A DNA stretch of 64,000 nucleotides from an uncultured bacterium (GCA_964423645.1 CAYRFE010000012.1:20085-84084), one strand, 5' to 3'; shown: positions 5,209-36,131, counted from the first letter of the stretch. Notes: generated by a model from the sequence alone, not told the origin. Translations and numbers: made by a program.

Positions 5209-5222
5209 ACATCCTCCCCGGA

Positions 5223-16899: not shown

Positions 16900-19800
16900 T
16901 TAGTATGTCTGAAGTTGTTTTATTCTTTCTTGTGCAGTGCGTTCATAGACAGTTCCCTTTCCGGATATCTTTATCACATGACTGTATATTTCGATTGCTT
17001 TATCGTTATTACCCAATGCTTCATATGCTTTCCCTGCTTGGAAAAGTGAGGTGATCATCCATTGATACTCTTTTTCGTTATGCGTCTTGATATATTTTAC
17101 TTTTAAAAACTCACGTATTGCATTTTGATAATCTTCCATACCAAAATAACAATCCCCGATATGGTATTGTATCTCAAGTCTAAACGTTTCAGGAGCTTTT
17201 TCAGAGATATCAAATAGCAATTTCAGCGCTGAATTATACTGCCGTTCATCAATGAAAGTATAAATATTACTTAAATAGGCGTCATAAAAAAGAGAATGTC
17301 CGGCATGATTTTTTACGATAATTTCAAACATTGTATGTGCATCCGTAAATTTCCCTGCTTTTTTATATACAATTCCAAGACTATACGCGATTTCCGGTGA
17401 CGGCTTGATATCATATCCTCGCTTCATTACATCTGCTGCCTTTTCGTATTCCTCTTGTATAAAATATACATTTCCCAGTGACAATAATGCATCAGCTCTA
17501 ATATCTGACGCGGGATACTTTTCAAGAAGCTGTAAAAACGCTTTCTCAGCCTCACTGAATTTCTTTTCGGTAATCAGAATATTCGCCTGCACAAATAAAG
17601 CGTGTGGGTGCCATGGGCTTTGTTGGTAATCTTTCACTACGGTGTCGATATATGAACGTGCCCGCTTAACGTCTTTTGCGGTAAGGTAATAATACTGCGC
17701 GAAATAGTAGAATATTTCTGCCTTATACCCGTCTAAGGTCTTTCCGGATGCAGCGTAAAGTTGCTGTGCTTCACCTGCTTTTTGCAGCTTTAAGAGTGCG
17801 ATGATTCTTCGACTGCGGCTATATGCACCTTGGTCTGAAAAAAATGATTGTATCTTGTTCCATTCATTCCGCTCAACATAAAAATCATACAGCATTTTTC
17901 GTGCATCATCATTCTTCACACCTTGAAGCAATGGTTCCCCCTTAGAAAACTCTCCGATACGGATATAGTATAATCCTTTTAGCGTACGAATTTTTTCAGA
18001 ATCCTTACTGTCAAATCGCGCCAATTCAGATCGTAAAACATCAATTTTCCCAAGTTCAAAAAGTGACTCGGCATACGGTAACAGCACGTCATACTCCCGA
18101 TACAGATCGGGACGTCGTTTCAACACATTTGACGCATAGAATAATGAATCGGAATAATTCTTTTTTCTATTATATATACCCGCAAGGGTAATACTTGCTT
18201 TAATCCGCAAAGTAAATCGATTTTTCAACCGAGGTAACACTTGTAACGCAGCGGCATCATTCCCTGTATTCACAAGGGCTTCAGCATAATAAAAACCCGC
18301 CAGATCGTGTGCAATAAACGTTGATTCATTATACGCTTTTTCAAGATACACTTCAGCATTACCATAATTAGCACGAAAATATTCTTGTAGACCGAGAACA
18401 AATCCTTTACAAATTTCATCGGAAAACGTCTCGGGAAATTGCATATCAAGAATCTTTTTTTCTTGCCCCGAAGCGCTCAGATAAACGATGTATTGAACCA
18501 CAAAGTCAGTATCAAGAAGTAACGGAAACTGTGCAATAAAAAATTGATAGTCATCCGCAGTGCTGTTATCCGTAACATCCTGATATACTAAGTAATCCCT
18601 ATATATCCGTGAAAGCATTTCACGAGTTTCATCATTATTATGGGTACGAATAAAATCTTTTACCGCAGTTCGTGACACCGTAAGAGCGTTAAAAACACCT
18701 GCACGATAATATTTTTCATCCTTTATCCCGCGTCGTTCATAATAGGAAAAGGCTTTATCATATTGTTTCATCTCAGCATAAATATCGCCCATCCTCTCAT
18801 GAAGATTGACAATACCCGATTCGGCATCATATTCTTGCAAGAGTTTTTCAAGTCGATCCAAACCATCCTTTTTGTCGACTACGACATATTTTTGAAGAAA
18901 AAGTATCCGTTTACGGGCACTGTCAGCGTATTCAGATGCCTCATAGGTTGCGATAACTCTCTCATACGCACGAAATGCATCCGTAAATCGTTCGGCTTTT
19001 TCTGCATATAATCCGGAATAATACAATGCTTGGTCCCCATAGTTATCATCAAATGCAATTTCATTAAGTGTCGCGACAGCCTTATCGTAATCCTTAACGT
19101 CATCACCATAAATGCGTCCTGCAGTATAGACCATATACGAAACCAGAAGGTCTGAGGGATACGTTCGAATATAAAAAATTACCGTTTCTATTGCATCCTT
19201 AAATGCCCCTTCACTCCGTAAGTATTCAATCTTTTCTTGTATAAGCGATTGTGCCGATTCGGTTTTTGAATACTTTTTATAATGTTCAAAAAGTGCGTCA
19301 TATAGTGATGACACCTTCACAACATTCTTCTTGCTCTTATAATACTCCAATGCATCCCCAACAACCGCCTCAAAATACGGCGACCCCGCATACGTTGTGA
19401 AAAAATATTCTCGTTGTTGTACTGCATCATCGATTTTTTTCATTGCAATCAATACATCAATTTTTCTCTTAACAGCTTCAGCTGCTTCAAGTGCGTTTGG
19501 ATTAATGGCAATTATTTGATTATACAACTGAAGTGCCCGATCAAGCTGTTGGGCTGAGCGGGCGAGTTCTGCTTTTCGATGTAATGCTTTTAACGCATAA
19601 ACAGATTGAGGAAATCGAGCAATTAATTTATCAAATGCATTTTGTGCATCGGTGTTTTTCCCCAAATTATATGCAGTATCTCCGGAATACCATAAGTATT
19701 CACCATTTTCGAAATCCTCGGCAGTTAAGCGCGACAGATAAAACGAAGCTTTGGTAAATTCATTTTGGTCATAATGTATATAAATTAATCTTTTATATAT

Positions 19801-20316
19801 TCGTTTCAGCTGTGCGTTATCTGAAGACGACGATAACGCTTTTTGTAACATGGAGAAATATCCTTTTGGGTCACCGTTTTCACGAATAATATCAGCTAAA
19901 AGTAATACTGCGTCGGTATAGAAAAGACTATCTTTATATGAGCCTTCGATTCTACGAAGAATTGTTTCGGCATTTTTTGTAACTTTTTCCTGATAAAATG
20001 CATGAGCACTGGCATACAATACATCACCGATAAAAGTGCTGTCAGGATATCTCGTCATAAAACGTTCACTTTCAGCAATAACACGTTTATACGACTGAGT
20101 GTAATGTAAGCTTAATATATAGCGATATATAGCTTTTTCAACGCGTCTGTCATGAGGATTATCATCAATAAAACGTTTATATTCATCTAAAGACAAATCA
20201 TAATACTTATCATTAAATAACTTTTCCGCATAATCAAATCCGGAAAATGCACGTACAGTGTGACCCAATACACAAAATACCACGCAAACAATTAAGCTAG
20301 TTACTATTTTTTTCAT
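16900..20316 (-). CDS. Secreted tetratricopeptide-repeat protein (approx. 1138 aa)
   Basis: Repetitive TPR-like helical sequence throughout. Start set to the Met of MKKIVTSLIVCVVFCVLG (signal peptide), which has a GGAGG SD. The track start at 20460 adds 48 non-signal residues. Confidence 0.75.
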   Translation of the reverse strand: MKKIVTSLIVCVVFCVLGHTVRAFSGFDYAEKLFNDKYYDLSLDEYKRFIDDNPHDRRVEKAIYRYILSLHYTQSYKRVIAESERFMTRYPDSTFIGDVLYASAHAFYQEKVTKNAETILRRIEGSYKDSLFYTDAVLLLADIIRENGDPKGYFSMLQKALSSSSDNAQLKRIYKRLIYIHYDQNEFTKASFYLSRLTAEDFENGEYLWYSGDTAYNLGKNTDAQNAFDKLIARFPQSVYALKALHRKAELARSAQQLDRALQLYNQIIAINPNALEAAEAVKRKIDVLIAMKKIDDAVQQREYFFTTYAGSPYFEAVVGDALEYYKSKKNVVKVSSLYDALFEHYKKYSKTESAQSLIQEKIEYLRSEGAFKDAIETVIFYIRTYPSDLLVSYMVYTAGRIYGDDVKDYDKAVATLNEIAFDDNYGDQALYYSGLYAEKAERFTDAFRAYERVIATYEASEYADSARKRILFLQKYVVVDKKDGLDRLEKLLQEYDAESGIVNLHERMGDIYAEMKQYDKAFSYYERRGIKDEKYYRAGVFNALTVSRTAVKDFIRTHNNDETREMLSRIYRDYLVYQDVTDNSTADDYQFFIAQFPLLLDTDFVVQYIVYLSASGQEKKILDMQFPETFSDEICKGFVLGLQEYFRANYGNAEVYLEKAYNESTFIAHDLAGFYYAEALVNTGNDAAALQVLPRLKNRFTLRIKASITLAGIYNRKKNYSDSLFYASNVLKRRPDLYREYDVLLPYAESLFELGKIDVLRSELARFDSKDSEKIRTLKGLYYIRIGEFSKGEPLLQGVKNDDARKMLYDFYVERNEWNKIQSFFSDQGAYSRSRRIIALLKLQKAGEAQQLYAASGKTLDGYKAEIFYYFAQYYYLTAKDVKRARSYIDTVVKDYQQSPWHPHALFVQANILITEKKFSEAEKAFLQLLEKYPASDIRADALLSLGNVYFIQEEYEKAADVMKRGYDIKPSPEIAYSLGIVYKKAGKFTDAHTMFEIIVKNHAGHSLFYDAYLSNIYTFIDERQYNSALKLLFDISEKAPETFRLEIQYHIGDCYFGMEDYQNAIREFLKVKYIKTHNEKEYQWMITSLFQAGKAYEALGNNDKAIEIYSHVIKISGKGTVYERTAQERIKQLQTY

Positions 20317-21172
20317 CGGAAACCTCCTTCGACTTAGTCGAGAACGATATACATGAAACCGGACATGCGGGGATACAATCCAAACACCGTATGCATGCAG
20401 ATGAATCCGGTGTTTTGTACACTTCGATATCCATTGGGCATACCTTTTTACATCTATCACATGATATGCAAATAGTTTTATCTACATTCATACGAAATAA
20501 ACTGATTGTATTGAAAAGTCCCAAAACTAATCCCAATGGGCAAATATAACGACAAAATGGTCGAACAATGAAAATACTTGCTGCCAAGATAATAAGAAGG
20601 ATTGTGATTTTACTCGCGTACAACCACCCGAGTTGATAGTCATTGAAAAAAGGTAACCACAACCCGCCCTGAAACATTCCTTGAGGGCATATGTATTTGC
20701 AAAATGTGGGGTTTTTTGTTAATAACGGCAGAATAACAGTAAAAATACCAAGCAATAGCCAAGGAATATAGTAGAAAAATCGAGATGGATTGTATTTTTT
20801 TCGAATAATACGCGCTAATACGTCTTGCACAAGACCGAATGGACACATATGACCACACACCCATCGACCGGAAATACTGCCTATTACCATAAGCGTACCG
20901 GCGACAATGAGCGAGAAATTATATTTAAAATATGCAATCATATGCTGTAATGTTCCTATCGGACATGACATGACCGCACCCGGACATGAGTAACAATTCA
21001 ACACCGGCACACATATTTTTTTAAGTGTTCCTTGATAAATCGTCCCTGAATAAAATCCTTTCATATATGGATTTATGAGAATCGAAAAAAGAAATTGATG
21101 AATCATTCTTTTTTTCAAAAAGAGAAAAACGGCTCTCATGATGTCTATCCTATTCCGATACAACTGAGACAT
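20297..21172 (-). CDS. NapH/MauN-like membrane polyferredoxin (4Fe-4S binding protein)
   Basis: Membrane-embedded CxxCP motifs (CGHMCPFG, CKYICPQG, CRYICPLG) plus C-terminal 2x[4Fe-4S] ferredoxin motifs (CISCDRCKKVCP, CIRCLDCIPACP). Start uncertain. Confidence 0.7.
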   Translation of the reverse strand: MSQLYRNRIDIMRAVFLFLKKRMIHQFLFSILINPYMKGFYSGTIYQGTLKKICVPVLNCYSCPGAVMSCPIGTLQHMIAYFKYNFSLIVAGTLMVIGSISGRWVCGHMCPFGLVQDVLARIIRKKYNPSRFFYYIPWLLLGIFTVILPLLTKNPTFCKYICPQGMFQGGLWLPFFNDYQLGWLYASKITILLIILAASIFIVRPFCRYICPLGLVLGLFNTISLFRMNVDKTICISCDRCKKVCPMDIEVYKTPDSSACIRCLDCIPACPVSCISFSTKSKEVSDEKNSN

Positions 21173-22945: not shown

Positions 22946-24742
22946 TCATTCCATGCATACATACACCTTTTCTTTCCCAAAAACAGGCACAACTGTTGAT
23001 AAAAACAGATGTGTCACAGTATCGCGAAATTCCGAAGAATATCGATACATACCCTCATGAAAATGTAAATTTGCAGTGATTACCGCTTTCTGAGGATCGC
23101 GTGAAATAGCACGATAAGTATCACGATTCATCCGTAAAAATCCAAGAGAAATATACAAAACACGCGAGGAATCAATTTCACGAACAATCCGCTCAAAAAG
23201 GTTCGTATAATCATCAACGCACCCTTCGTAAAAAATAACCGGATCAACATGCACGGACACTTGATAACCCCATTGCACAACATCTTTAATCGCATAAAAA
23301 CGCATATCAAGCGTTGCGGTCCCCTTTTCATGAAGCGATATAACATGTTGCGGAGACAACGTCCATGCAGGCACTACCGTATGATGATTGTTAATTGTTC
23401 GCAGGTGCAAATAATTTTGTGACTTTGTGCGAAACTCACATCGAATTCGGGGGTATTGAATTAAATGCTCTGATACGAACTCACTCATTTTGGTGATTGT
23501 ATCAAATGTAAGTGCATCACAAAAATCTCCGAAATAGATAATAATAGGTTGCGAATGCAAGGATGTATAAAGGGTAATTATTTGTGAGACAATCGCCTCT
23601 TTGTTTTCGAACAATACAATATCATCACTTCTGAAAAAACCTTGTAAATAACAATACGAACAATCAAACATACAATTGTATGCATTTACCGCAGAATAAT
23701 GATGAATTGATTTTGCCCCGTACCCTTCAGGTTTTTTTTTCACACAGAGCCCTTTTTTTTGAGCGATAAAGATATTTCGAATTCCGTATTGTGTCTTATT
23801 CATAAAATAATGCAAATAATTTGTAATTGAAACAGGTTTTAAAAAAGAGAATCGTTCGTGGTACTGCGAGACGGAGAAATCTTCTTCAACCAACAGATAC
23901 CCGTTATTTTTTTGTGATGAAGTTCTCAGTGAAATTTTCTGATTATTCTCGAATGAAAACAAATTTTGTCGTATCTGGGAATATATTTTTTGTCGACTTG
24001 AAAATGAAGAATGATGATGTACAAAATATTGAGACAACTGCAAGACAATATCATTCGCTTCAAAATCAAATTCAAGGGCCATGTATATTTCAAGCGACCA
24101 TGGTACGGTAAATATTTTTTCCCATTCTTCACGATGTTCAAGAAAATACTCGGCGAATCCTTTTGTGATGCGAGTGTCAATGCTTGCACGAACATTTTCA
24201 TTATAATCACTCACTTGTTTGATTAAAAGCACAGGAACAGAATTACGGTCGCCCCATTGACAGATAAAATACCCCTCCATGTCGATCAAAGTACCAAAAT
24301 ATTTCCATGCATCACAATTTCCTTCTGTAACGACCGGAACCGTGATAAGCGGTTGTGAATTCTTCATCTTTAGTCTGCACTGCTTTGGTGCTTGAAACGT
24401 TCGATTTGTATGCAAGTCATGATAAATGACCGATGAGACCGGGAAAATATTCCCAACCGAAAGCGAAACATCAAGTGATCCGGCGATACCCATATTAACA
24501 ATCGCAATAAATTCATACGTCGCCTGTAATGTATACAACGAATGAAGAAGCGCAAAAAAACCATCACCATTATTTGAATAAATATACCAGTCGCATAAAT
24601 CTGACGAATACTTCCAAAGACGTTTCGATTTTATGATTTGAAACGGCAGCTCAAGAAAATATTTCATTTCAAATGCATGCTCAAAGACCAACAATACTTT
24701 TGGAGTCTGTAAAATAGCAACGTCTTTCGTAGTGTGTGACAT
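22946..24742 (-). CDS. Fusion protein: N-terminal PNP/MTAN-superfamily nucleosidase-like domain + C-terminal SPL-type radical SAM domain
   Basis: N-term: GIAGS and LIDMEGYF (the EMEG-type motif of MTA/SAH nucleosidase / futalosine hydrolase). C-term: CMFDCSYCYLQ = CxxxCxxC with the CxYCY signature of the spore-photoproduct-lyase-like radical SAM family. 598 aa. 1-nt overlap with the upstream Wzy-like gene. Confidence 0.65.
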   Translation of the reverse strand: MSHTTKDVAILQTPKVLLVFEHAFEMKYFLELPFQIIKSKRLWKYSSDLCDWYIYSNNGDGFFALLHSLYTLQATYEFIAIVNMGIAGSLDVSLSVGNIFPVSSVIYHDLHTNRTFQAPKQCRLKMKNSQPLITVPVVTEGNCDAWKYFGTLIDMEGYFICQWGDRNSVPVLLIKQVSDYNENVRASIDTRITKGFAEYFLEHREEWEKIFTVPWSLEIYMALEFDFEANDIVLQLSQYFVHHHSSFSSRQKIYSQIRQNLFSFENNQKISLRTSSQKNNGYLLVEEDFSVSQYHERFSFLKPVSITNYLHYFMNKTQYGIRNIFIAQKKGLCVKKKPEGYGAKSIHHYSAVNAYNCMFDCSYCYLQGFFRSDDIVLFENKEAIVSQIITLYTSLHSQPIIIYFGDFCDALTFDTITKMSEFVSEHLIQYPRIRCEFRTKSQNYLHLRTINNHHTVVPAWTLSPQHVISLHEKGTATLDMRFYAIKDVVQWGYQVSVHVDPVIFYEGCVDDYTNLFERIVREIDSSRVLYISLGFLRMNRDTYRAISRDPQKAVITANLHFHEGMYRYSSEFRDTVTHLFLSTVVPVFGKEKVYVCME

Positions 24743-26553
24743 TATTCAACAGCAATAATAAAACGTTCGTATGCACTAACCGTTTTTTCTTTTGAATATC
24801 TGCTTATTTCACGCATTCTTTGAGCGTGTGTTAATTTTTCTTCTTTATCGGTTGAGTGAGTCTCGATAAATGCGTGCACACGATAAAATTCCGGTTCAAT
24901 GAGTAATATTTCTTGTGCTTTTTTCATCGCAGCGGGAATATTACCTTCGCTTTCAAGAACGTTCATCATAAAGTAATGATAGCGCACATTGAAAGGCCAG
25001 TCTTTCAGTATGGTTTCAAGTTCAACATGTAAACGCATACGTATCTCAGGTTCCATAAGCTGTATCTCTTTTGCTTTGGTATTTTTTAAACGTGTTAAAA
25101 AATCAAAATAATGGAGAGATAATCGAAAACGAACATCACTGTCCATCGGCATTAATTTCTTATGCTTCGCATAATAGCGCTCAATCGCTGCGTAACGACC
25201 GTTCTGAGGAAAAGGCAATGTTGTTTGTGTTAAAAAATTCGTATATTGCTCAACATAAAAGGGATCATACGGTGTCAGCCGATGAGCATAGCGTAACAAT
25301 TGATACACTTTCATTTGATCTTTTTCCTTCGTCGATCGCAGGTATAACGAATACGACAATATATGCAACGTACATACGTATGTTATAATAAAAAATATGA
25401 TATTGGTATAGTATGGTTTAAAACGATAGTACCATGCATGATCATGTGTTCCAAAACTAATCAACACTGCAAAAAGCAATACAATCGAAAAACTTTTTTC
25501 GATATTATTGAATAATCCGGCGATCATAAAAAACGCGATAGGCAATCCATACATTCGTTTCTTGAGTGAGAAAAATAATCCGCTGAATAATAAAAAAGAT
25601 CCTATAATACCCATTACCAGCAATCCTTCAAGATATGTGCTATGGGACATTCGAGGTGTTTTCGCAAATCGTGAATATTCGGTTTGTTCACCTTCAAAAT
25701 ATTTTTGTAATGTGACTTCTACTGTGCCGGGGCCAAATCCGATAAACGGATGTACCGTAAACATTCTGTATGCTGCATTATAAATTGAAACACGGGAGTA
25801 TGCGAAAGGATCTTTTTTATCCTTTGTATACCGTTGGTATATTAATCCCGACAAAAGCAATACGGCTGACACTGCAGCAAGAATAAAATAACGTCGATCT
25901 ATTAATTTCTTTTTATATATTAAATATGCCAAAAAAAATATGAGTATAACAATAGTCGTTCGAGAAAGAGTAAAATACAACCCGCTCACAACAAGAATTG
26001 TTGCACTTAAAAATATGATACTGTTTTTTTGAAAAATATTCTTTTCAAATACAAGAAAATAAAATGCCACAAGAAGCCACAATGCCACCCAATTGGGATT
26101 CACAAATGTCGATGCAGGACGCGGTATACGATATGCCATAAATTGAATTATAATAATAATACAGTGCACAATTGAAAACAGCAACAATATACTTATAAAA
26201 TATTTTTGGTTAAATGTTATGTTTTTTATAATTATCATTGATACTATAGTGAATGCGAACATGATGACGTGGCTATTAATCGCATTATTATGATATGCGA
26301 CAACAATTACACTTAAAACCGCCGCACATATCAGTAAATCAGATATCTGTAAGGTGATTCGCTTACGAAGAATAACATATAATGCCGATAAAATCGGAAT
26401 AATGGAAATAACATACTCATTTTCGCCGCCTTGGAAAAATGTCGATAACATGACAATAATTACAAATACATACTCTGCGATTCTATATACCGGAAGTGAT
26501 TTGATATATCTGATAGCACTATTTATCATTATATCTGTATTCCTCAAGTTCAA
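24742..26553 (-). CDS. O-antigen ligase (Wzy_C)-like polytopic membrane protein with C-terminal soluble helical (TPR-like) domain
   Basis: At least 10 TM segments. Wzy_C-type periplasmic loop (YSRVSIYNAAYRMFTVHPFIGFGPGT). Approx. 200-aa hydrophilic helical C-terminal domain. 603 aa. Confidence 0.7.
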   Translation of the reverse strand: MNLRNTDIMINSAIRYIKSLPVYRIAEYVFVIIVMLSTFFQGGENEYVISIIPILSALYVILRKRITLQISDLLICAAVLSVIVVAYHNNAINSHVIMFAFTIVSMIIIKNITFNQKYFISILLLFSIVHCIIIIIQFMAYRIPRPASTFVNPNWVALWLLVAFYFLVFEKNIFQKNSIIFLSATILVVSGLYFTLSRTTIVILIFFLAYLIYKKKLIDRRYFILAAVSAVLLLSGLIYQRYTKDKKDPFAYSRVSIYNAAYRMFTVHPFIGFGPGTVEVTLQKYFEGEQTEYSRFAKTPRMSHSTYLEGLLVMGIIGSFLLFSGLFFSLKKRMYGLPIAFFMIAGLFNNIEKSFSIVLLFAVLISFGTHDHAWYYRFKPYYTNIIFFIITYVCTLHILSYSLYLRSTKEKDQMKVYQLLRYAHRLTPYDPFYVEQYTNFLTQTTLPFPQNGRYAAIERYYAKHKKLMPMDSDVRFRLSLHYFDFLTRLKNTKAKEIQLMEPEIRMRLHVELETILKDWPFNVRYHYFMMNVLESEGNIPAAMKKAQEILLIEPEFYRVHAFIETHSTDKEEKLTHAQRMREISRYSKEKTVSAYERFIIAVE

Positions 26554-27847
26554 TGGTTTTTAACCAAGCGGAATAATACAATCCTTTGTCATGCAATTCT
26601 TTTCGTTCATCTGCAAGCATTCTCAAATATCTTTTCGGCGGTATTTTTATAAAGAGTATTGCTACAGAAACATACAATAGGATTGCTACCCATGCAAACG
26701 TTCTTCTTCCATAGGTTATTTGCTCATCCGGCTCATTGATTGCATATAAAAGCCAAAACAATCCGCCTATTGAAGGGAAATAATAGACAATATCGATCAT
26801 AAAATAACAACTCAGAACAACAAACATTGGAAAAAGAGGGGAAGCCCGTATTCTGTATAATGCAATCCCAAAAAACACAACCATGATAATACCGACTACC
26901 CCATGATCAGCCATACTTTGTAATGCAAAACTATGAGCATTATGAATAACATTCGCATCCTGTTGCTGATAACGAGGATAATGAAGATCAAAATTATTTT
27001 CACCTACACCGATAAGGGAATTATCGCTGTACATTTGAATTGCTGAACTATAATTTTGATACCGTTCTTGGAGTGACTTTTCCACCGAAGAAAATTCTCG
27101 TACAGAAAAAAACATTATTCCTGCAATAAGAACCAATAGCGAGCCTATTATCAGTTGCTTATATCTTTTTTTTGTAATAAGAATAATAACCGTGTACAAA
27201 ACCATCAATCCAAAAGCAATAAATGTTTTTGTGAGTAACATCATCCCAAGATTACATAATGCAATAATGAAATAATAGAACTTATGTTCCTTTTTATAAA
27301 GGTACAATGCGATAAAAAATGCCGTTATACAAAAAGCTGCATAGGCATTTGGCAATTGGAATGTCGCAAATTGACGTCCGGATCCAAGAAGTGCTTTTAC
27401 CGCACTGTCAGCATGTGTGTGCAAAATCATCGGAAATGCATAAATATTTTGATACAACACATAAAGCATAAGTACAAGGGAATAGACTACCAGTGTTTTA
27501 TAGAAAAGAATCGGAAACGAATAATGCCTGAATATAACATATAAAAACAGATAAAACATATAATACAGATACATTTCATTCGATAAAAACAAATCTTTAG
27601 CATACATAATGGAGGTAAGCGGTAATATAAAGAACCAAAATAAACTACGAGTGCATGCGATTTTTTTAAATGAAAATATTACAAATATCCCGCTGAGCAT
27701 AAGAATGTTTATAAAAAGCGAATCATTAATACCTGCTGCGTTGGTGCTAAAATCAAACCCGAAAAATAACATTATCGGAAAACCGACGAGTAGGGGTATA
27801 AATATAAGATATAAATATTTCATACCATATGATAAGCCTTTTTTCAT
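26519..27847 (-). CDS. O-antigen ligase (Wzy_C)-like polytopic membrane protein
   Basis: Polytopic. Wzy_C loop HNAHSFALQSMADHGVVG. 442 aa. Immediately downstream of pilQ (53-nt gap). Confidence 0.7.
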   Translation of the reverse strand: MKKGLSYGMKYLYLIFIPLLVGFPIMLFFGFDFSTNAAGINDSLFINILMLSGIFVIFSFKKIACTRSLFWFFILPLTSIMYAKDLFLSNEMYLYYMFYLFLYVIFRHYSFPILFYKTLVVYSLVLMLYVLYQNIYAFPMILHTHADSAVKALLGSGRQFATFQLPNAYAAFCITAFFIALYLYKKEHKFYYFIIALCNLGMMLLTKTFIAFGLMVLYTVIILITKKRYKQLIIGSLLVLIAGIMFFSVREFSSVEKSLQERYQNYSSAIQMYSDNSLIGVGENNFDLHYPRYQQQDANVIHNAHSFALQSMADHGVVGIIMVVFFGIALYRIRASPLFPMFVVLSCYFMIDIVYYFPSIGGLFWLLYAINEPDEQITYGRRTFAWVAILLYVSVAILFIKIPPKRYLRMLADERKELHDKGLYYSAWLKTIELEEYRYNDK

Positions 27848-27900
27848 GAAATAAAGACGGGGGGTATGTCCCCCCCGCGTATTTGATATATCATCGTTGA

Positions 27901-30138
27901 TTAATTTGCCGCCGGCATGATAATATGTGGCGTTACAAAAATAATTATTTCTTCTGCCTCACGTTTGGTTTGTCTGTTTTTGAATAATAGTCCTAAGATC
28001 GGGATGTCTTTTAAAATCGGTACACCTGAAGACGAACTGGATTTATCCAAGCGAACAAGGCCTGCGATAACTGCTGTTTTCCCATCTTTTACTAACAGAG
28101 TTGTAGTTGCCGTATTTTTCGCAATAATCAAATTCACTCCCGAACCTGATGCATCACTGACCTCAGGTTTAATCTCCAGTATTACCTCATTACTTGCATT
28201 CACGGTAGCCTTCACATCAAGTTTTATACCCACATCGGTAAGTGTGGTCACGGTATTCCCTGCTTGATCAAGCTGAGTAATCGGCACAGACTTTCCGTTT
28301 TGGAGAGATGCGGTTAATCCGCTCATAGTCGTAACCGACGGATTGGCCATAACTTCGGCTTTACTTTCTTCAGCGAGCAAGGTGAGTTTCATATTGATGT
28401 CATACGTGTCCAATAACGTTGTTACGACATCAGTAGAAATACCTGTAGTTCCATATTGAATATTGGTTCCGTAATTCGGAGCACCGGTGGTAATAAAAGC
28501 TTGGTTGTTGGTTGCCTGCCAGCGAATACCCAGCGTCGTTGCTGCAGAGGTCGCAACACGAACAAATTTAGCCTCTATCATAACTTGCGGTATCGGTTTG
28601 TCAAGATACCTGATCATGTTGAGAGCTTCATTCAAACGCTCAGGACTGCCTGTGAGAATCAACGAATTGGTTCGCTTGTCAACGATTGGTTTCATAGACA
28701 TCGTTTGTTCCAACAGTTTAGAAATATCATCTGCCGTTGAATAGGAAATTGGTATGATCCGTGTTTCTACAGGTCCTAAATCAACCATTTCTTTCTGCTT
28801 TTTAACCGCATCGACTTCTCTTTTAAATTCATCAACGGTTGCAACACGAATAATATTATCTCTAATCTCATATGCAAACCCGTTGGTTCTGAGAATAATA
28901 TCTAATGCCGTTTCCCATGTAACATTAGAAAGTTCAAGCGTCACTAAACCTTTTACACTTTGAGACATAATAATATTATACCCGCTTTGTTTTGCGAGCC
29001 CCGTTAAAAGGACAGAAATATCTTGTTTCTGTACAGAAATATATTTAATGATATCTGAACGTTTTTCACGCATACTGGTATCGGAAGTTTGATTACCAAG
29101 CATATCAATATCCATAACAATGTCTTTGTCATCGCGATAAATCTTATATGAGATATTATTGTTTAAACGTATGTCAGAAATAACGTTATTCCCGCTTCTG
29201 CTGTTTGTTACTTCAACAACAGCCGCTTTACGTACAGGTATCGTAAGTAGTTTATCGCTGATTGCGGCATTGGTAAACGTAAGCTGGATTTTTTCTTCTT
29301 TGGGAAGTTGCTTTTCATCAAATCGAACCCATCCGTTTGTTTTAAAACGTAATGTTACACGATTATCCGTTTGTTCGCTGGTAACTTCCGTAATTTCAAC
29401 GCGTTGCGCTTCAACTTCTTTATCAAGCGTGATAACCAAGCTGTTCTGGCCCTTTTCAATGTTTGCAGGAAATTCATTCATCAGATTGATAACAAGATTG
29501 ATATCCTTTTCACCGATAGGCACAAGATTAATATTTTCAACGACATCTCCATCGCCGACAAACTGCTCTTTCCCTGTGATATTTTTGGCATTATATAACT
29601 CAACGGTCATCTTTTTCTTTTCTTCCTTCACCGTATAATTGAATGCTTCTTCAAATTCGATGAATACTTTCACCTTATTCGTACCATCCTTAACAATATC
29701 CACCATCTTTAACTGGGATGGTTTGCTAAGCGTCTCTGTAGATGCTGTCACGCTCGTCGGTGTCACATCGCTCAAACTGAAATGAATAACCAATGAGTTG
29801 GCTTTTTTGTCAACAAAATATTGATACCATTTATCCATCTGTACGACGACTCGTGAAATGTTTTTTTGAAACTGCGCAACTCGGATCTCTTGAATTCCGC
29901 CGATATTAACCTTCGTTGATTCATTTTTTTTATCAGTTGTGGTTGACTGAAAATCGATTATGAGACGTGCAGGGCCATCCATCTTTGTGATTGCATACTT
30001 CAACTGCCCCTCAACGGTAATCTCAACATCCAATCCGCCGGTAACCGGTGTATGGGTCACATTCTTCAAGACTGCCGCAGAAAGAGTCGTTACCGCACAT
30101 GCGATACAAAGGACAGCACATGCTAAAAATTGTTTCAT
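27901..30138 (-). CDS. pilQ: Type IV pilus secretin PilQ
   Basis: Signal peptide. N-terminal AMIN-like repeats. C-terminal secretin domain (…GVPILKDIPILGLLFKNRQTKREAEEIIIFVTPHII). Confidence 0.9.
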   Translation of the reverse strand: MKQFLACAVLCIACAVTTLSAAVLKNVTHTPVTGGLDVEITVEGQLKYAITKMDGPARLIIDFQSTTTDKKNESTKVNIGGIQEIRVAQFQKNISRVVVQMDKWYQYFVDKKANSLVIHFSLSDVTPTSVTASTETLSKPSQLKMVDIVKDGTNKVKVFIEFEEAFNYTVKEEKKKMTVELYNAKNITGKEQFVGDGDVVENINLVPIGEKDINLVINLMNEFPANIEKGQNSLVITLDKEVEAQRVEITEVTSEQTDNRVTLRFKTNGWVRFDEKQLPKEEKIQLTFTNAAISDKLLTIPVRKAAVVEVTNSRSGNNVISDIRLNNNISYKIYRDDKDIVMDIDMLGNQTSDTSMREKRSDIIKYISVQKQDISVLLTGLAKQSGYNIIMSQSVKGLVTLELSNVTWETALDIILRTNGFAYEIRDNIIRVATVDEFKREVDAVKKQKEMVDLGPVETRIIPISYSTADDISKLLEQTMSMKPIVDKRTNSLILTGSPERLNEALNMIRYLDKPIPQVMIEAKFVRVATSAATTLGIRWQATNNQAFITTGAPNYGTNIQYGTTGISTDVVTTLLDTYDINMKLTLLAEESKAEVMANPSVTTMSGLTASLQNGKSVPITQLDQAGNTVTTLTDVGIKLDVKATVNASNEVILEIKPEVSDASGSGVNLIIAKNTATTTLLVKDGKTAVIAGLVRLDKSSSSSGVPILKDIPILGLLFKNRQTKREAEEIIIFVTPHIIMPAAN

Positions 30139-30148
30139 CTTATCCTCC

Positions 30149-31039
30149 TTATTCAGTAACTTTATGTAAAATAATATCGCGCGGTTGCCCTTCGGTTTTG
30201 ATCACAAAACGTCGCAGTACAACCATCTCACGGGTTATAGACTCAACCTTTGCACCACCGATAACGCTCCCTATCTTCAATACGATTCCACGGCCGGAAT
30301 CATCTTCCAGCATCGCAACAACTTCGTTCCCGTAATGAATGATTCCCCTGTAATTTAATTTTGAGAAATCGACATCTTCCGCATCAACAACACTTTGTTG
30401 GGTAGTGCTTCCGTCTTTTTCTTCGGGAGTAGCATACGGATTAATGAAAGGATCCCGTTTGTTATGGCTTTTATACTGATAGGTCTCTTTTTCCTTGACC
30501 ACATCTTCAACATTACGTTCTTTCGGATCCTTCGCCGCATCTTTGGATACTACGGTTTTTTTCGTATCAATCTTTTTTTCCGTGACCGGGCTGTCTTGAG
30601 GTTTCTTCGTGGTTGTAACATTTTGGGTAGTAGTCACCGTTTTACCGGTGTCAGGTGTGGTTTTACCTGTCGTTTCGTTCTTCACGGTATCAGTTTTTTT
30701 AGAAGACTCTGGCTTCTCCGCCGGTTTTTTAACATCCGTTTTCGAAGTATCTTTTTTTGTAATATCAGTCTTCGTTGCATCTGTTGGTGTTTTACTCGAC
30801 TGAGTGGTATCCGTCTTCGACGTAGTTGATTTTATCGGCTGTTCAATGGTCTGCTTTTGTGCATCCGTTGTCTTTTTCCCGTCAAGTGCCGGAGGTTGAC
30901 TCTTTTTATATACTTGCTCTATCTTATCTTCAGCATCTTTCAAATCTTTGTCAGTAGGCTTTGACGATCCGCAGGAACTCAATACTACCATCACCGACAT
31001 ACAACACAATAAAAAAATACACCAACGTGTTCGGCGCAT
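30149..31039 (-). CDS. pilP: Pilus assembly lipoprotein PilP with long T/K-rich disordered linker
   Basis: Lipobox LSSC. Approx. 150-aa low-complexity KTD/TTK linker. C-terminal PilP beta-domain (…YRGIIHYGNEVVAMLEDDSGRGIVLKIGSVIGG…). Confidence 0.75.
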   Translation of the reverse strand: MRRTRWCIFLLCCMSVMVVLSSCGSSKPTDKDLKDAEDKIEQVYKKSQPPALDGKKTTDAQKQTIEQPIKSTTSKTDTTQSSKTPTDATKTDITKKDTSKTDVKKPAEKPESSKKTDTVKNETTGKTTPDTGKTVTTTQNVTTTKKPQDSPVTEKKIDTKKTVVSKDAAKDPKERNVEDVVKEKETYQYKSHNKRDPFINPYATPEEKDGSTTQQSVVDAEDVDFSKLNYRGIIHYGNEVVAMLEDDSGRGIVLKIGSVIGGAKVESITREMVVLRRFVIKTEGQPRDIILHKVTE

Positions 31040-31048
31040 AATCCTCTC

Positions 31049-31624
31049 CTATTTCTTCTCGTTATAGATGTATGCCACCAAATTGAGCGAAGAGCTGATC
31101 GTATGTGTCTTTTTCGACGTCGTCGCAGATTGCACGCCCGAAATAGAAATATCCCCAACATTGATAATACGGGGCAATAAACTAAGATTTGATAAAAAAT
31201 ATCCCAGAGAATGAAAATTTCCTTTAAGGGATAAATCAATACGAAACTCCAGATAATCACCCTTCGGTTCAAGCTTTCCGGGTTTAAACGATTCTAAGGA
31301 CAGATCCGCACTTTGCGACGCATACGTTACCTCGCGCAATAATTTGGGAATTTCCTGTTGAGTAGGTAAGAGTTTTTTGGCGATCTCTATGCGAGCGTTG
31401 TTATTTTCTATCTCTGCCTTGAGTTCCGCAACTTTTTTCTCTAACGCGACCAAACGCGAATATTCGGTTTTCTTTTGCGTCACCTCTGTTTCTAAACCCG
31501 CGATAACCGCGCCCTGTGGTTTGAGAAGCATATAGTAAAAAACAGCGATCAATCCTATAGCGAGAAAAACGGCGATTACAATCTTTTTATTCTTGGGATC
31601 GTTAATATCAAACTTTCCAGCCAT
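31049..31624 (-). CDS. pilO: Type IV pilus assembly protein PilO
   Basis: Single N-terminal TM, coiled coil, then periplasmic domain. Position between pilN and pilP. Confidence 0.8.
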   Translation of the reverse strand: MAGKFDINDPKNKKIVIAVFLAIGLIAVFYYMLLKPQGAVIAGLETEVTQKKTEYSRLVALEKKVAELKAEIENNNARIEIAKKLLPTQQEIPKLLREVTYASQSADLSLESFKPGKLEPKGDYLEFRIDLSLKGNFHSLGYFLSNLSLLPRIINVGDISISGVQSATTSKKTHTISSSLNLVAYIYNEKK

Positions 31625-31633
31625 TTCATCCCC

Positions 31634-32212
31634 CTATTTTTTTGTTTCCCTAAACGCAGGATTTATCAAGCATGTGATAGAAAACGAGGAAAAAGTCTTT
31701 TCATCCTTACCGCTTGAGATTTTTGCCTCGGTCACGCCCTCGATAGTCGCCTTATCAATAAAACCGGGAACTTCAAGGCTTTCCGCAAAATCAGAAATGA
31801 TAAAATTATTTTTGCTTTTACCGCTAAGACTAAGGGTATTCCCTCTCAAACTCATTGATTCAAGCCACATATCTTCAGGAATTTTAAGCAGAAGCGTTTC
31901 CAACAATTGAGGCGTGAAGGTACGTCCCTTCTGCAAGCGATCAAGCACGGCAACCTTATTCTTAATATCTTTTAACTGTGCTTCAAGTGTCTTCGCTGTC
32001 GCATCGAGAGTTTTAAACTCCGGTTTATTTATCTTTTGCTCAAGATCATCTTTCTCTTTTGTAAGACTAGATATTTTTTGAAGATTTGCAAGATACATCA
32101 TTCCAAGAAAAATCGCAAGACCGACGAATGCCAGTATCATTACGGTGCCAAGTATAGGCACCCTCGCCCGCTCCTTACGTTCTTCCTTCGGGAGCAGATT
32201 GATCTCTATCAT
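31634..32212 (-). CDS. pilN: Type IV pilus assembly protein PilN
   Basis: Hallmark N-terminus MIEINLLPKEERKE followed by one TM. Confidence 0.85.
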   Translation of the reverse strand: MIEINLLPKEERKERARVPILGTVMILAFVGLAIFLGMMYLANLQKISSLTKEKDDLEQKINKPEFKTLDATAKTLEAQLKDIKNKVAVLDRLQKGRTFTPQLLETLLLKIPEDMWLESMSLRGNTLSLSGKSKNNFIISDFAESLEVPGFIDKATIEGVTEAKISSGKDEKTFSSFSITCLINPAFRETKK

Positions 32213-32213
32213 A

Positions 32214-33221
32214 TTACTTCACCTTCCTCATCGCAAGGCCGACAACAACCGTCAGCGCCGGACCTAATTGTTCCAAATCGCTCATTAATGCGGGAGGTGC
32301 CTTCATATACTTTACCGGATTGAACAATTCAATTTCAACACCCAGTAATGATGAAAGAGAATTTGACAGTCCCAGCGTTAACGCGCCGCCACCCGTTATG
32401 ACGACACGATTAATAACAACCTGCGTGTTCATTTTCACATAATCTATCGAGCGCATTATTTCATTACCGATATTGGTGTTCACTTCATCTACAAAGGGAC
32501 GAATATCGACATTCGCCGTTTCTTTGCCTAACTTCACTCTATCAGCCGTATCAAAATTCATGCCGAGTCCCTTTGCAATGGCATCGGTGTAATGACGACC
32601 GCCATAATTGATTTCACGAATAAACTTCGGAATACCATCCACCGTGATATTCAAGCTGGTTTTCTCAGAGCCTATATCGGCAAAAAGAACCGTCCCGCTC
32701 GTCGGAGCAACTAATGTTTCATATACGTTTTGAATAGCAAGGGCTGATGTATCGACAACCATCGGGCTCAAACCGAGACTTTTTAATAAATTAACGCGCG
32801 CATTAACAATCTCTCGCTTCGCCGCTACGATCAAAACATCTGTTTTGCCGGCGCTTTCTCCTAATATTGCATAATCAGAATAGATATCCGACGGTTCAAA
32901 AGGTATATAATTCGGAAGTTCCCACCCTAACGAGGCAACGACCTTATCTCTGCCGGTTGCATCTATCTGCACTGTTTTATTGATTAAATGACGACCTGAT
33001 ATAGGGATCGAAACATTTTTATTCTTTATTTTCCTATTTGCAAAAATACTGCTGATGGTCGACTCGATCAGATTGGCATCAATAATCTCACCCTCAACGA
33101 TGCTTTCTCGAGAAAGCAGTCCGTAACCGAAATTTATAACTTCAACTCCTTTGGATGTAAGGCGAAGTTCCATGGCCTTGATGCTGTTCGCACCAATATC
33201 CAAGCCAACGAGCTGCTTCAT
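32214..33221 (-). CDS. pilM: Type IV pilus assembly ATPase-fold protein PilM
   Basis: Actin/FtsA-like fold signatures (GLDIGANSIKA…, ITGGGA). First gene of pilMNOPQ. GGAGG SD. Confidence 0.85.
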   Translation of the reverse strand: MKQLVGLDIGANSIKAMELRLTSKGVEVINFGYGLLSRESIVEGEIIDANLIESTISSIFANRKIKNKNVSIPISGRHLINKTVQIDATGRDKVVASLGWELPNYIPFEPSDIYSDYAILGESAGKTDVLIVAAKREIVNARVNLLKSLGLSPMVVDTSALAIQNVYETLVAPTSGTVLFADIGSEKTSLNITVDGIPKFIREINYGGRHYTDAIAKGLGMNFDTADRVKLGKETANVDIRPFVDEVNTNIGNEIMRSIDYVKMNTQVVINRVVITGGGALTLGLSNSLSSLLGVEIELFNPVKYMKAPPALMSDLEQLGPALTVVVGLAMRKVK

Positions 33222-33265: not shown

Positions 33266-34558
33266 TCAAGGTTTTATGTTATATAACTTTATTTTTCTTA
33301 TCAAAGTATTTCTATGAATGCCTAATAATTGTGCGGCTTTTGAATGATTATTATGCGTGGTCAACAATGCTTTCTCTATGAGGGCTTTTTCTGATCCGTT
33401 CAACGTCTCATTGGTAACAGTTGAAAGAGTGAGCATATGAATAGGATCGACTGACCCGCTGATGACCACTTGTGTGATAATATTCTCGAGCTCACGAACG
33501 TTCCCTGGCCATGTATACTCATTCAAGATACGTAATTCCTCCGAAGAAAGCACAATTCTTTGTTTATACTTTCTATTAGATAATTCAAGGAAATACCTGC
33601 ATAACGGCATAATATCATCGATTCTTTCGCGTAAAGGGGGGATAGTAAGAGGAAAAACATTCAACCGATAATAAAGGTCTTCTCTGAAATTCTTCTGCAT
33701 TACTTCTTCAGATAAAATCCTATTGGTGGCTGCAATGATTCTTACATCAATAGACCGACTGGTCACTTCTCCAAGACGTGTGATCTCCTTCTCCTGCACA
33801 ACGCGAAGCAATTTGACTTGTGCTGCTAACGATACCTCAGTGATCTCATCCAGAAAAATGGTTCCTCGATGAGCATATTCAAATTTACCTTTATAATCTT
33901 TATCTGCTCCGGTGAATGCACCTTTTTTATATCCGAACAATTCGGATTCAATAAGGTTTTCAGGCAATGCGGCACAAAACACTTTCACAAAAGGTTTTTG
34001 CGATCGTATACTTTCTCGATGAATTAAATCAGCTACCAACTCTTTACCTGTGCCGCTTTCGCCTTGGATCAATACGGTGGCATCAGAATGCGCTGCTTTT
34101 TTTGCCTTTTCAATGACATCTAACATCACGCGAGAGACGGCAATAAAATTTCTCGGGGTATTTTGCGCATTACCGAATCCCTCTATATCGGCTTCCAATT
34201 CTTCGGTATGTGCAATTTTCTTAAGGATCATCTCAAGCTCATCGTAATTGAGCGGTTTGGTAAGATAGTCGTACGCGCCGAGTTTCATTGCAAATACTGC
34301 ATCTTGAGTATTTGAGAATGCCGTAAGCATAATCACTTTACACGGGAATGCGTTTTTTTGTATAAACTGTAATAAAAGCATTCCGTTGATTTTTTTTAAC
34401 TTATAATCAGTTATAACAACATCATATGCACTTTTTTCAAGTAACGCCATGGCCGGCTCACCGTCATCGGTCTCAATGACCGAATGACCTGAACCTAACA
34501 GTAACTCTTTCATGTAGGTACGCTGTATCGGATCGTCCTCAACCAGAAGTATTTTCAT
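33266..34558 (-). CDS. Sigma-54-dependent response regulator (NtrC family), PilR-like by position
   Basis: REC domain (D-box), AAA+ sigma54-interaction domain (GESGTGKE, GAFTGA in ELFGYKKGAFTGAD), C-terminal HTH (…AAQLLGIHRNTLIRKI). Confidence 0.85.
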   Translation of the reverse strand: MKILLVEDDPIQRTYMKELLLGSGHSVIETDDGEPAMALLEKSAYDVVITDYKLKKINGMLLLQFIQKNAFPCKVIMLTAFSNTQDAVFAMKLGAYDYLTKPLNYDELEMILKKIAHTEELEADIEGFGNAQNTPRNFIAVSRVMLDVIEKAKKAAHSDATVLIQGESGTGKELVADLIHRESIRSQKPFVKVFCAALPENLIESELFGYKKGAFTGADKDYKGKFEYAHRGTIFLDEITEVSLAAQVKLLRVVQEKEITRLGEVTSRSIDVRIIAATNRILSEEVMQKNFREDLYYRLNVFPLTIPPLRERIDDIMPLCRYFLELSNRKYKQRIVLSSEELRILNEYTWPGNVRELENIITQVVISGSVDPIHMLTLSTVTNETLNGSEKALIEKALLTTHNNHSKAAQLLGIHRNTLIRKIKLYNIKP

Positions 34559-36131
34559 GACGTATAAACCTCATCGATAGTGTAGTAAATCTCCCCTTCT
34601 CTGTAATCAATTCCATTGTAGCACCACCCATAGCCAAGAGCAAGCGAATGATATACATCCCGATTCCGGTCCCTTGTTCTTTCGTAGTATATCCGAGTTG
34701 AATAAGACGAATAAGCTGATCAGCATCAAATCCGTTCCCATTATCCGTAATATCCAGATAAACATGCTCATCACTCTGACGCAAAATAACCGTAAGCGTC
34801 AGAGAATCACGCCGTTCTTCAAGTGCGTTTTTTATAATATTATCACAGATGATCTTCAACTTCATCCGATCAAAATAAATAAGCGGAGAAATCGTCGCCT
34901 CAATCGAAAACCGCACATTGCTATCATTAAAAACTGTTTCCCAGTGCATCAGTAAATTTGTGGTAAACTGTGCTAATTCTATCGGTTCAGGCGTATACTC
35001 GATCAATAAACCCATATGTGACGCAACTGAATTGATGAATTGTAATTGATTGTCGATATCATCCCATTTCTTCTCTTCGGGGTACTTCTTTTCAAGCGTT
35101 TTTACGATCATAGCGATAACATTTAAAGGATTTTTAATCTCATGCGCAATGACAGAAGAAAGCGTTTTTAATGCAGTCTCATTGACCGCACACGCAGATT
35201 GCAATTCGTCCGCACGCTTCTGAATGATCAGAATACGATCATACCCGTTTTCGGTTTTCATCCCCACCAATACGAAATCTGCAAATACCGGCGTTCCGTC
35301 CATCGCGGAAAATGTTTGCGTAAAAAACAATCCGTTATTAAATTTCTCATCGTCAAGCATAGTATGCAGAAAGGGGAATATTTCATGTGCATGAAGTCCT
35401 TGAATAGTACCTCCGTAAAGAGATTCAAGTTTTTTATTGGAATGGCGTACAACACCATCTCCTTGGAGTACGGCAAACCCGACACCAAGATTATCGATCA
35501 CATAATTTAAAACTTGCATGGTATTTTTCACGGTTGAAGACATATCATTGAAGTGATTAGCGAGCGTACGAATCTCAGCTATACCGTCTTCGGTGACATG
35601 CACATCATAATTCCCTTGTGTTATGAGCTTTGTTGAACGCGTAATAGCGGTGACGGGACGAATAAAGAATACATACGAAACGTAATACATACATCCGGTT
35701 ATCGCGATAATTAATATATAAAAAGGAATTAAAAAACGCAAATACATCCCTGCGCGCAGATAGTCACTAAATGAGTATATAAACACGTAGCGACTTGCAT
35801 TATCGGATCGTAAAAATAGCGTACGGTTGAATCGCAGAGGAGTACCCGATTTTAACCGGTCACGGATCGCAAACAAATCATAATAGGGAACTCCGATAAA
35901 TCGTTCATTCGACTCATCATATACCGCACTTAAAAAATGCAATGCTACTAATTTTTTTAAAACAATTTCTTGTTTGTCACTGTCTTCTGTTGCAATAAAA
36001 TCCGTGTAACGGATCAAGGAGTCCTCCATTTCATTATAGTACAATGAAAATAATAAATGATATGCAAGAAAACCGCTTATAATCGCTGAAGATAACAATA
36101 ACGACGCCGCGATAAGAACAGTTTTTTTCAT
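34539..36131 (-). CDS. Sensor histidine kinase (PilS-like by position)
   Basis: N-terminal TM/HAMP. HisKA H-box HEIKNPLNVI. HATPase_c (G-boxes DNGNGF, GTGIGMYI). Start set to MKKTVLIAASLLL at 36131, forming an ATGA overlap with the upstream gene's stop. Confidence 0.8.
   Translation of the reverse strand: MKKTVLIAASLLLSSAIISGFLAYHLLFSLYYNEMEDSLIRYTDFIATEDSDKQEIVLKKLVALHFLSAVYDESNERFIGVPYYDLFAIRDRLKSGTPLRFNRTLFLRSDNASRYVFIYSFSDYLRAGMYLRFLIPFYILIIAITGCMYYVSYVFFIRPVTAITRSTKLITQGNYDVHVTEDGIAEIRTLANHFNDMSSTVKNTMQVLNYVIDNLGVGFAVLQGDGVVRHSNKKLESLYGGTIQGLHAHEIFPFLHTMLDDEKFNNGLFFTQTFSAMDGTPVFADFVLVGMKTENGYDRILIIQKRADELQSACAVNETALKTLSSVIAHEIKNPLNVIAMIVKTLEKKYPEEKKWDDIDNQLQFINSVASHMGLLIEYTPEPIELAQFTTNLLMHWETVFNDSNVRFSIEATISPLIYFDRMKLKIICDNIIKNALEERRDSLTLTVILRQSDEHVYLDITDNGNGFDADQLIRLIQLGYTTKEQGTGIGMYIIRLLLAMGGATMELITEKGRFTTLSMRFIRHENTSG

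Follow-up and report, generated by a model that had tools for sequence, protein, structure and literature searches.

A tandem pair of Wzy_C membrane proteins, one with a TPR-like tail, is fixed behind pilMNOPQ in Mcinerneyibacteriota and may glycosylate pilus proteins

A 64,000 nt stretch of DNA from an uncultured bacterium (GCA_964423645.1 CAYRFE010000012.1:20085-84084; the window) carries two tandem genes on the minus strand, wzyA (open reading frame (ORF) 26519-27847; hereafter A) and wzyB (ORF 24742-26529; hereafter B), that encode Wzy_C membrane proteins and lie directly downstream of the type IV pilus genes pilMNOPQ. This placement is kept in every related locus in which it could be read, both proteins are modelled with the fold of the O-antigen ligase WaaL, and B ends in a predicted periplasmic tetratricopeptide repeat (TPR) domain. 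Tentatively, and with rather less than even confidence, A and B are interpreted as a two-subunit O-glycosyltransferase that would depend on an undecaprenyl-pyrophosphate (Und-PP)-linked glycan and serve the pilus machinery. The genes run on the minus strand in the order histidine kinase, sigma54-dependent response regulator, pilM, pilN, pilO, pilP, pilQ, A, B and a radical S-adenosylmethionine (SAM)/nucleosidase fusion, and the features through B are:

34539-36185, minus strand: histidine kinase, PilS-like (Pfam)
33266-34558, minus strand: sigma54-dependent response regulator, PilR-like (Pfam)
32214-33221, minus strand: pilM (Pfam PilM_2, E = 5.1e-50)
31634-32212, minus strand: pilN (Pfam PilN, E = 2.2e-12)
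31049-31624, minus strand: pilO (Pfam PilO, E = 3.4e-25)
30149-31039, minus strand: pilP, lipoprotein-like (Pfam PilP, 25.7 bits)
27901-30138, minus strand: pilQ, type IV pilus secretin (Pfam AMIN, STN, Secretin_N and Secretin; NCBIfam IV_pilus_PilQ at E = 3.9e-75, under the cut-off of that model)
27848-27878, minus strand: terminator-like hairpin between pilQ and wzyA (terminator scan and sequence)
26519-27847, minus strand: wzyA, predicted WaaL-fold membrane protein of 13 helices (Pfam Wzy_C) with a short conserved C-terminal tail, predicted periplasmic
25339-26529, minus strand: wzyB, membrane domain (residues 1-397 of 595 aa), 13 predicted transmembrane helices and a WaaL-like periplasmic loop at residues 237-297 (Pfam Wzy_C, AlphaFold2 (AF2))
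24742-25338, minus strand: wzyB, C-terminal tail (residues 398-595 and stop codon), predicted periplasmic divergent TPR domain of about five repeats (AF2, superposition on MamA)

The original prediction had placed two tandem Wzy_C proteins immediately after pilMNOPQ, an arrangement that holds, with both ORFs found at those positions and all five pil genes identified by Pfam. The 53-nt gap that it gave is correct when counted from the pilQ stop codon (27901-27903) to the first ATG of A (27847; ORF of 442 aa); the probable start of A is the ATG at 27823 (434 aa), favoured by the N-terminal alignment of orthologues and by a public gene call (P0005), and pilQ and A lie 53–77 nt apart on one strand. 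The open frame of B spans 24742-26553, with ATG 26529 the most likely start (595 aa, in agreement with P0001), and the overlap at the A/B junction, also described earlier, amounts to 11 nt between this start and the stop codon of A.

The order from the histidine kinase and response regulator through pilM, N, O, P and Q to A and B was kept in every related locus with readable upstream DNA (L001, L006–L010, L012–L017 and L019), and tblastn synteny placed the PilS/PilR-like pair ahead of pilM in all relatives. No other evidence speaks as strongly for a functional link to the pilus machinery as this invariant synteny, which, maintained throughout a phylum-level clade, is also firmer than the evidence on which the linkage was first proposed. 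Identity within the conserved loci is 44–50% for PilQ and reaches down to 25% for B, with named records from Candidatus Mcinerneyibacterium aminivorans and Candidatus Mcinerneyibacteriota and one labelled Bacillota. Conservation of both ORFs as proteins in 12–13 related loci (A orthologues in 12) indicates that A and B are real genes. The gene that follows B differs between relatives (close relatives have a radical-SAM fusion there, L005 a phosphatase-like gene and L007 an Impact_N gene on the opposite strand), and the conserved unit therefore ends at B. Neither in the window nor in 13 related loci does a lipopolysaccharide (LPS), waa or O-antigen cluster adjoin the pair, and a flippase, polysaccharide co-polymerase (PCP), outer-membrane polysaccharide export (OPX) or glycosyltransferase gene is likewise missing beside it in the window and in 13 clade loci; the other genes nearby encode a radical-SAM protein, folate functions and TPR proteins.

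Homologues as close as these are rare. Only five clusters were found at E ≤ 1e-30 among 1.84 billion representatives, after which the score falls from 358 to 103 bits, and word-indexed searches returned four relatives of B and nine of A. A third search, with a broad alignment, gave mostly generic Wzy_C or TPR proteins, and the best representatives were not recovered in it.

Both proteins pass the Pfam Wzy_C model (PF04932; gathering score 31.7 bits), the profile hidden Markov model (HMM) check suggested at the outset, with 54.3 bits (E = 1.7e-14) for A and 58.1 bits (E = 1.1e-15) for B. The pilin O-linking oligosaccharyltransferase (O-OTase) families PglL, PglS, TfpO and TfpM all carry Wzy_C, and the conserved His is needed in every O-OTase family (PMC9829042). 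Membership in Wzy_C cannot tell oligosaccharyltransferases from ligases or polymerases (PMC3643930; for polymerase versus ligase also PMC4594306), so a choice among these roles is not assignable by sequence. The essential triad R215/R288/H338 of Escherichia coli WaaL corresponds to R224/R298/H349 of PglL (PMC3643930) and has a counterpart in both proteins, A having Lys in place of the first Arg. In B it consists of R190/R246/H296, both Arg being invariant in 12/12 clade sequences and H296 in 11/12; in A it consists of K207/R262/H305 (442-aa numbering), with R262, H302 and H305 invariant in 13/13 sequences and the first position occupied by Lys (n = 9), Arg (n = 3) or Met (n = 1). Judged by these residues, both A and B look catalytically competent. 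The two circumstances that the original prediction had named as unfavourable, a clear grouping with WaaL together with an adjoining O-antigen cluster and a catalytic loop stripped of its residues, were not encountered. With only 22% identity over 180 aligned columns, A and B are paralogues that diverged long ago and did not arise by recent duplication. Neither matches NCBIfam RfaL or gives a significant match to any NCBIfam family, not even sub-threshold scores were obtained to IctB or PEP_O_lig_1, and single-sequence searches of the PDB with A and with B returned nothing relevant.

Structural models were built with AF2 from alignments of homologues (B: mean predicted local distance difference test score (pLDDT) 91.4, predicted template modelling score (pTM) 0.89; A: pLDDT 83.7, pTM 0.84) and compared with the PDB by Foldseek. 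The top match for both was WaaL (7tpg_B, probability 1.00; E = 5.2e-4 for B and 1.8e-4 for A), with the SEDS polymerase RodA a far weaker second for A. At the profile level, a broad B-like profile matched 7tpg_B at E = 1.2e-15, and the A profile gave a weak match to 9rmk_A, deposited as ‘Oligosaccharyltransferase’ (E = 0.0067), ahead of 7tpg_B (E = 0.11). B has 13 hydrophobic helices, and the Lys and Arg residues of its short loops (14 on the side assigned as cytoplasmic, three on the other) fit an N-in, C-out topology. Because the catalytic loop (residues 237–297) is assigned to the periplasm and a 13th helix precedes the tail, residues 398–595 are predicted to share the periplasmic location of that loop. 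A likewise has a 13th helix, followed by a tail of ~40 residues in which a Tyr-Ser is conserved and a hydrophobic pattern recurs.

The tail of B (198 residues) forms ten helices in the AF2 model and superposes on the TPR protein MamA (5lfm_A) with a TM-score of 0.77 and a root-mean-square deviation of 3.7 Å over 197 columns; as modelled, about five repeats make up this divergent TPR domain. Within the clade, TPR support from sequence is weak (clade profile to SGT2, E = 0.045; NCBIfam MamA, E = 0.0099) and a narrow B profile gave only marginal TPR matches in the PDB; the broad family profile matched TPR proteins at E = 1e-41, with OGT among the best of these, and the relatives of B, unlike B itself, have canonical TPRs. 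The helical C-terminal domain of ~200 aa originally reported for B is therefore present, but it is not unusual for a Wzy_C protein as had been supposed, as 67/147 of the best non-identical representative clusters outside the clade align over both core and tail (median length, 628 aa). Wzy_C with a C-terminal TPR domain is a common architecture.

Five clusters exceed 950 aa, and four of them (P0028, P0031, P0043 and P0101; 1,023–1,064 aa) consist of two Wzy_C domains followed by TPRs. The A profile scores the N-terminal half of the fused proteins better (P0028: 84 versus 20 bits) and the B profile the C-terminal half (81 versus 25 bits), and this shared A-then-B order hints that A and B act together, a pairing with which the 11-nt overlap of the two genes also agrees. 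The A-like half of the fusions stops at about profile position 320–370 and is without the 13th helix and tail of A, an absence required by the topology of a single chain.

Side by side with these architectures, other arrangements were seen among the wider relatives. An unrelated 143-kb contig has tandem Wzy_C+TPR genes (L030, 9755-14157; 701 and 689 aa), showing that such tandem pairs arise outside the Mcinerneyibacteriota too; recognisable polysaccharide or pilus genes were not found near them. Many soil-metagenome loci place a TPR protein of ~420–440 aa directly upstream of a ~450-aa Wzy_C protein (L031, L033, L037, L038, L040, L045, L047, L053, L055, L056, L064, L065, L072, L080–L082, L086–L088, L094–L096, L100 and L101; the upstream TPR domain of L072 was confirmed by Pfam), which looks like a split form of the Wzy_C+TPR architecture.

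In the proposed mechanism, A and B, as ancient paralogues of the WaaL/PglL fold, would act as a pair on the periplasmic side of the inner membrane, probably in the form of a heteromer, and the extra 13th helix and conserved tail of A may tie it to B. Each paralogue would take a glycan off the Und-PP carrier through its (Arg/Lys)-Arg-His site and pass it to an acceptor or, in a variant, one would polymerise the glycan and the other attach it. Since the pair is a constant appendage of pilMNOPQ across the Mcinerneyibacteriota, the acceptor would most likely belong to the type IV pilus system, as a pilin or as some periplasmic portion of the PilP/PilQ assembly, and the periplasmic TPR domain of B may act as a docking module for this acceptor or for the machine. 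A pilus glycosyltransferase is favoured by the unbroken linkage to pil genes, by surroundings free of polysaccharide and LPS genes, by the putative protein-binding domain in the periplasm and by the precedent of the pilin O-OTases. A more specific form, possible though doubtful, is that of a dedicated WaaL-fold two-subunit complex that is a type IV pilus accessory across the candidate phylum, with its TPR domain docked to PilQ, PilP or incoming pilins, glycosylation of pilus proteins occurring at the machine and the fused relatives representing a single-chain version. That a Wzy-polymerised glycan might itself use the secretin pathway is, at best, scarcely credible.

Several observations weigh against a pilus glycosyltransferase. 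Neither A nor B matches PglL_A (PF15864), Wzy_C_2 (PF11846) or NCBIfam PglL at E ≤ 0.1, whereas true PglL proteins from the same searches (P0210 and P0214) carry both PglL_A and Wzy_C_2. TfpO, TfpM and most PglL loci are typified by an adjacent pilin gene, which 21/31 pglL genes have (PMC3643930), but prepilin regular-expression scans of the window and of loci L001–L019 found no pilin gene next to the pair, and genes for a donor glycan are absent nearby. In a single lineage (L002–L004 and L011, one species) the His of B is replaced by Glu (MAENA versus MSHST) and the first triad residue of A, Lys or Arg, by Met; the two substitutions may depend on each other, or both subunits may have become inactive together. 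The TM-scores of the models against WaaL are modest (0.40–0.45), and the matches of the wider relatives to IctB (TIGR00947) and PEP_O_lig_1 (TIGR03097) all fall short of the curated cut-offs. The preference first expressed for pilus or surface O-glycosylation over LPS thus retains the Wzy_C superfamily, the pil synteny, the lack of an LPS cluster and the missing RfaL match in its favour, but is left without PglL markers or an adjacent pilin.

The intergenic region after pilQ adds a further point on the same side. It holds a hairpin, GCGGGGGG-GACATA-CCCCCCGT, followed by the T-rich CTTTATTTCA (27848-27878, minus strand), with a stem of eight pairs, seven of them G-C, in DNA of 33–40% G+C. GC-rich hairpins of differing sequence follow pilQ in 9/11 related loci (L001, L004, L007, L010, L012, L013, L015, L016 and L017), eight of these (all but L013) also having a clear T run, and only weak AT-rich structures follow pilQ in L009 and L014. 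The start codon of A lies so few bases past the T run that there is no room for a sigma70 promoter behind the hairpin, and a scan for the sigma54 promoter consensus found none near pilM or A. The original claim of simple co-transcription of the pair with the secretin operon is overstated, because a strong terminator-like hairpin fills the gap and recurs in most relatives; judging from the sequence, co-transcription is plausible but attenuated. We infer that A and B are expressed through partial read-through of this attenuating terminator, which would yield less enzyme than secretin.

Relatives outside the clade (15–19% identical to B) also speak against a pilus role, being found in clusters with Wza, Wzc, family 4 glycosyltransferases (GT4) or flippases, or isolated, a polysaccharide polymerase or ligase setting that weakens the glycosylation claim. 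Among them, L022 has flippases, GT4s and a pyruvyl transferase; L024 has GT4 genes; L029 has a beta-barrel porin, Poly_export and Wzz/GNVR/AAA_31 followed by Wzy_C-TPR; L072 has a sigma54 response regulator, a TPR protein, Wzy_C, Poly_export (Wza), Wzc and an epimerase; and a fused example (L020) stands alone. No homologue of PilM, N, O, Q, B, T or C was found at E < 1e-4 in 80 metagenome loci (750 kb) retrieved with the fused-protein alignment as query, a screen run with single-sequence queries that very distant homologues may escape. A serious rival, though on balance the less likely one, is that A and B build or attach an exopolysaccharide or O-antigen-like polymer in coordination with the pilus, the TPR domain acting as a periplasmic scaffold toward export. 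The typical Wzx/Wzy-type clusters of the nearest outside relatives (L022, L024, L029 and L072), the inability of Wzy_C to part polymerases from ligases and a weak Wzz-like N-terminus in ORF 337-1476 (E = 9e-4 to 3e-3) would all suit such a role. It is opposed by the absence of flippase, PCP, OPX and glycosyltransferase genes beside the pair in the face of an invariant pil linkage, and by the low identity and sharp drop in score that set the clade off from those relatives.

The WaaL match itself suggests another role, in which one or both proteins would join O-antigen to lipid A-core as an LPS ligase and the position behind pilQ would be a historical accident kept by the lineage. WaaL is the sole significant structural match of both models, the Arg/Arg/His triad is present and PilQ implies an outer membrane; however, RfaL is not matched, no waa or LPS genes lie nearby, and the periplasmic TPR domain, the obligate pairing of paralogues and the double-domain fusions are foreign to the solved WaaL (a single chain of 413 residues). 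This role would also leave the conserved pil synteny unexplained, and it is considered improbable. PilF, PilW and Tgl are TPR lipoproteins of secretin assembly, and the pair could instead be mainly structural, with the TPR domain of B assembling or anchoring PilQ in a like manner and the membrane domains serving as anchors with little or no catalysis. The position directly after pilQ phylum-wide, the predicted periplasmic TPR domain, the lineage that has lost the His of B and the Lys of A and the sub-threshold PilW and Tgl matches of TPR domains in relatives are consistent with this role, yet the triad is otherwise strictly conserved in both paralogues, the TPR domain of B itself has no PilW, PilF or Tgl HMM match and TPR matches across families are generic; a structural role is considered more improbable still.

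The motor and platform of this pilus system are encoded ~18 kb from the pair (2834-6965, minus strand):

5223-6965, minus strand: pilB (Pfam T2SSE and MshEN)
4045-5208, minus strand: pilT (Pfam T2SSE)
2834-4048, minus strand: pilC (Pfam T2SSF)

The original statement that the window has no pilin gene is borne out to the extent that a regular-expression scan found no canonical prepilin motif, but it passes over an odd pilin-like ORF at 337-1476 (minus strand, 379 aa), with pilB, pilT and pilC upstream of it, along with an acetyltransferase-like gene and DUF4416. Its N-terminus, MNNKG/ISLLILDIVIVVLLALVV and then AEKTLATLQVAIDIYQTRNDGKLP, appears by eye to comprise a short leader like that of type IVa prepilins, a hydrophobic helix and a GspG-like motif, with Asp at +7 instead of Glu at +5 and a long coiled-coil tail rich in Lys and Glu. 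Its identification as a pilin was rejected, as no N_methyl, T2SSG or other pilin HMM and no PDB entry matched; the protein could be PCP-like or else an atypical pilin, which would make it a candidate acceptor. O-glycosylation typically occurs in Ser/Thr regions of low complexity. PilP has at residues ~25–170 a mucin-like linker of ~140 residues rich in Thr, Lys, Ser and Pro (weak Pfam Mucin match, E = 0.02), and the PilP proteins of L007 and L009 (184–185 aa) are without a Thr/Ser-rich linker; the linker is a possible acceptor in this lineage only.

Among known systems, WaaL (Cupriavidus metallidurans 7TPG/7TPJ and E. coli) shares with A and B the Pfam domain, the polytopic fold, the periplasmic loop after helix 9 and the triad, whereas A and B differ from it in the 13th helix with a predicted periplasmic C-terminus, the tandem paralogues, the TPR domain of B, and the lack of an LPS context or RfaL match. 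PglL (Neisseria), TfpO/PilO (Pseudomonas and Acinetobacter), PglS and TfpM have the essential His, use an Und-PP-glycan donor and are encoded in or near pilus loci (PMC3643930, PMC9829042), and are like A and B in Wzy_C, this His and the type IV pilus locus; in contrast to them, A and B are without PglL_A/Wzy_C_2, follow pilQ and not a pilin gene, and are paired and TPR-bearing. The uncharacterised Wzy_C+TPR proteins (IctB-like TIGR00947 and PEP_O_lig_1-like TIGR03097) match B end to end, with fusions that repeat the A-then-B order, but occur at 15–19% identity in Wza/Wzc/glycosyltransferase clusters or alone and never by pil genes in the loci examined. Eukaryotic TMTC O-mannosyltransferases and the soluble OGT join a glycosyltransferase to an acceptor-selecting TPR array, though their catalytic folds and donors are unrelated and the likeness to B is by analogy only. 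In the literature covered, from which subscription journals were excluded, no report was found of Wzy_C genes tied to pilMNOPQ or of paired or fused Wzy_C+TPR enzymes, and nothing on the pili of Mcinerneyibacterium; the enzyme family and pilin glycosylation are already known, and the paired, TPR-bearing, secretin-linked form is new.

Should A and B prove to be a pilus glycosyltransferase, they would represent a fifth arrangement of bacterial O-glycosylation enzymes, heteromeric, guided by TPRs and linked to the machine and not to the pilin gene, in a phylum without a cultured member. They also highlight a branch of the O-antigen-ligase superfamily, large and as yet uncharacterised, in which Wzy_C is combined with a periplasmic TPR domain in single, tandem or fused form, and the split and fused forms offer a testable case of heteromeric action in a family whose solved member here, WaaL, consists of one chain. 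Glycoconjugate vaccines can be made with O-linking oligosaccharyltransferases (PMC9829042), a purpose that enzymes with a built-in acceptor-binding domain could also serve. As a polysaccharide polymerase or ligase, the pair would be an ordinary finding save for its fixed place in the pilus locus.

The gene that follows B in the window encodes a protein of 598 aa:

22946-24742, minus strand: radical-SAM/nucleosidase fusion, with an N-terminal PNP_UDP_1 domain (methylthioadenosine/S-adenosylhomocysteine-nucleosidase-like) and a radical-SAM domain like that of spore photoproduct lyase

Its start overlaps the stop codon of B by 1 nt and it follows B only in the closer relatives (L001–L004, L006 and L011). 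As a part of the module it was rejected, being absent after B in L005 and L007 and giving no tblastn match in L012–L019. Horizontal transfer as the cause of the low G+C (0.33 at 26–28 kb) was set aside as unneeded, the genes being kept in place clade-wide. Locus L017 (DSCS01000062.1), titled ‘Bacillota bacterium SpSt-1200’, has the full run of histidine kinase, response regulator, pilMNOPQ, A and B, including the secretin, and its label is probably wrong.

Upstream of the first histidine kinase/response regulator pair (34539-36185 and 33266-34558) lies a second pair on the minus strand (kinase, 40024-43779; sigma54 response regulator, 38727-40034), and between the two is an 871-aa protein (36128-38743, minus strand) with a Por_Secre_tail sorting domain of type IX secretion; a Por_Secre_tail protein also precedes the kinase in relatives. 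Three further TPR-rich proteins are encoded on the minus strand at 16900-20460 (1186 aa), 48461-50425 (654 aa) and 50444-54223 (1259 aa), the first of which is conserved downstream of the locus in relatives.

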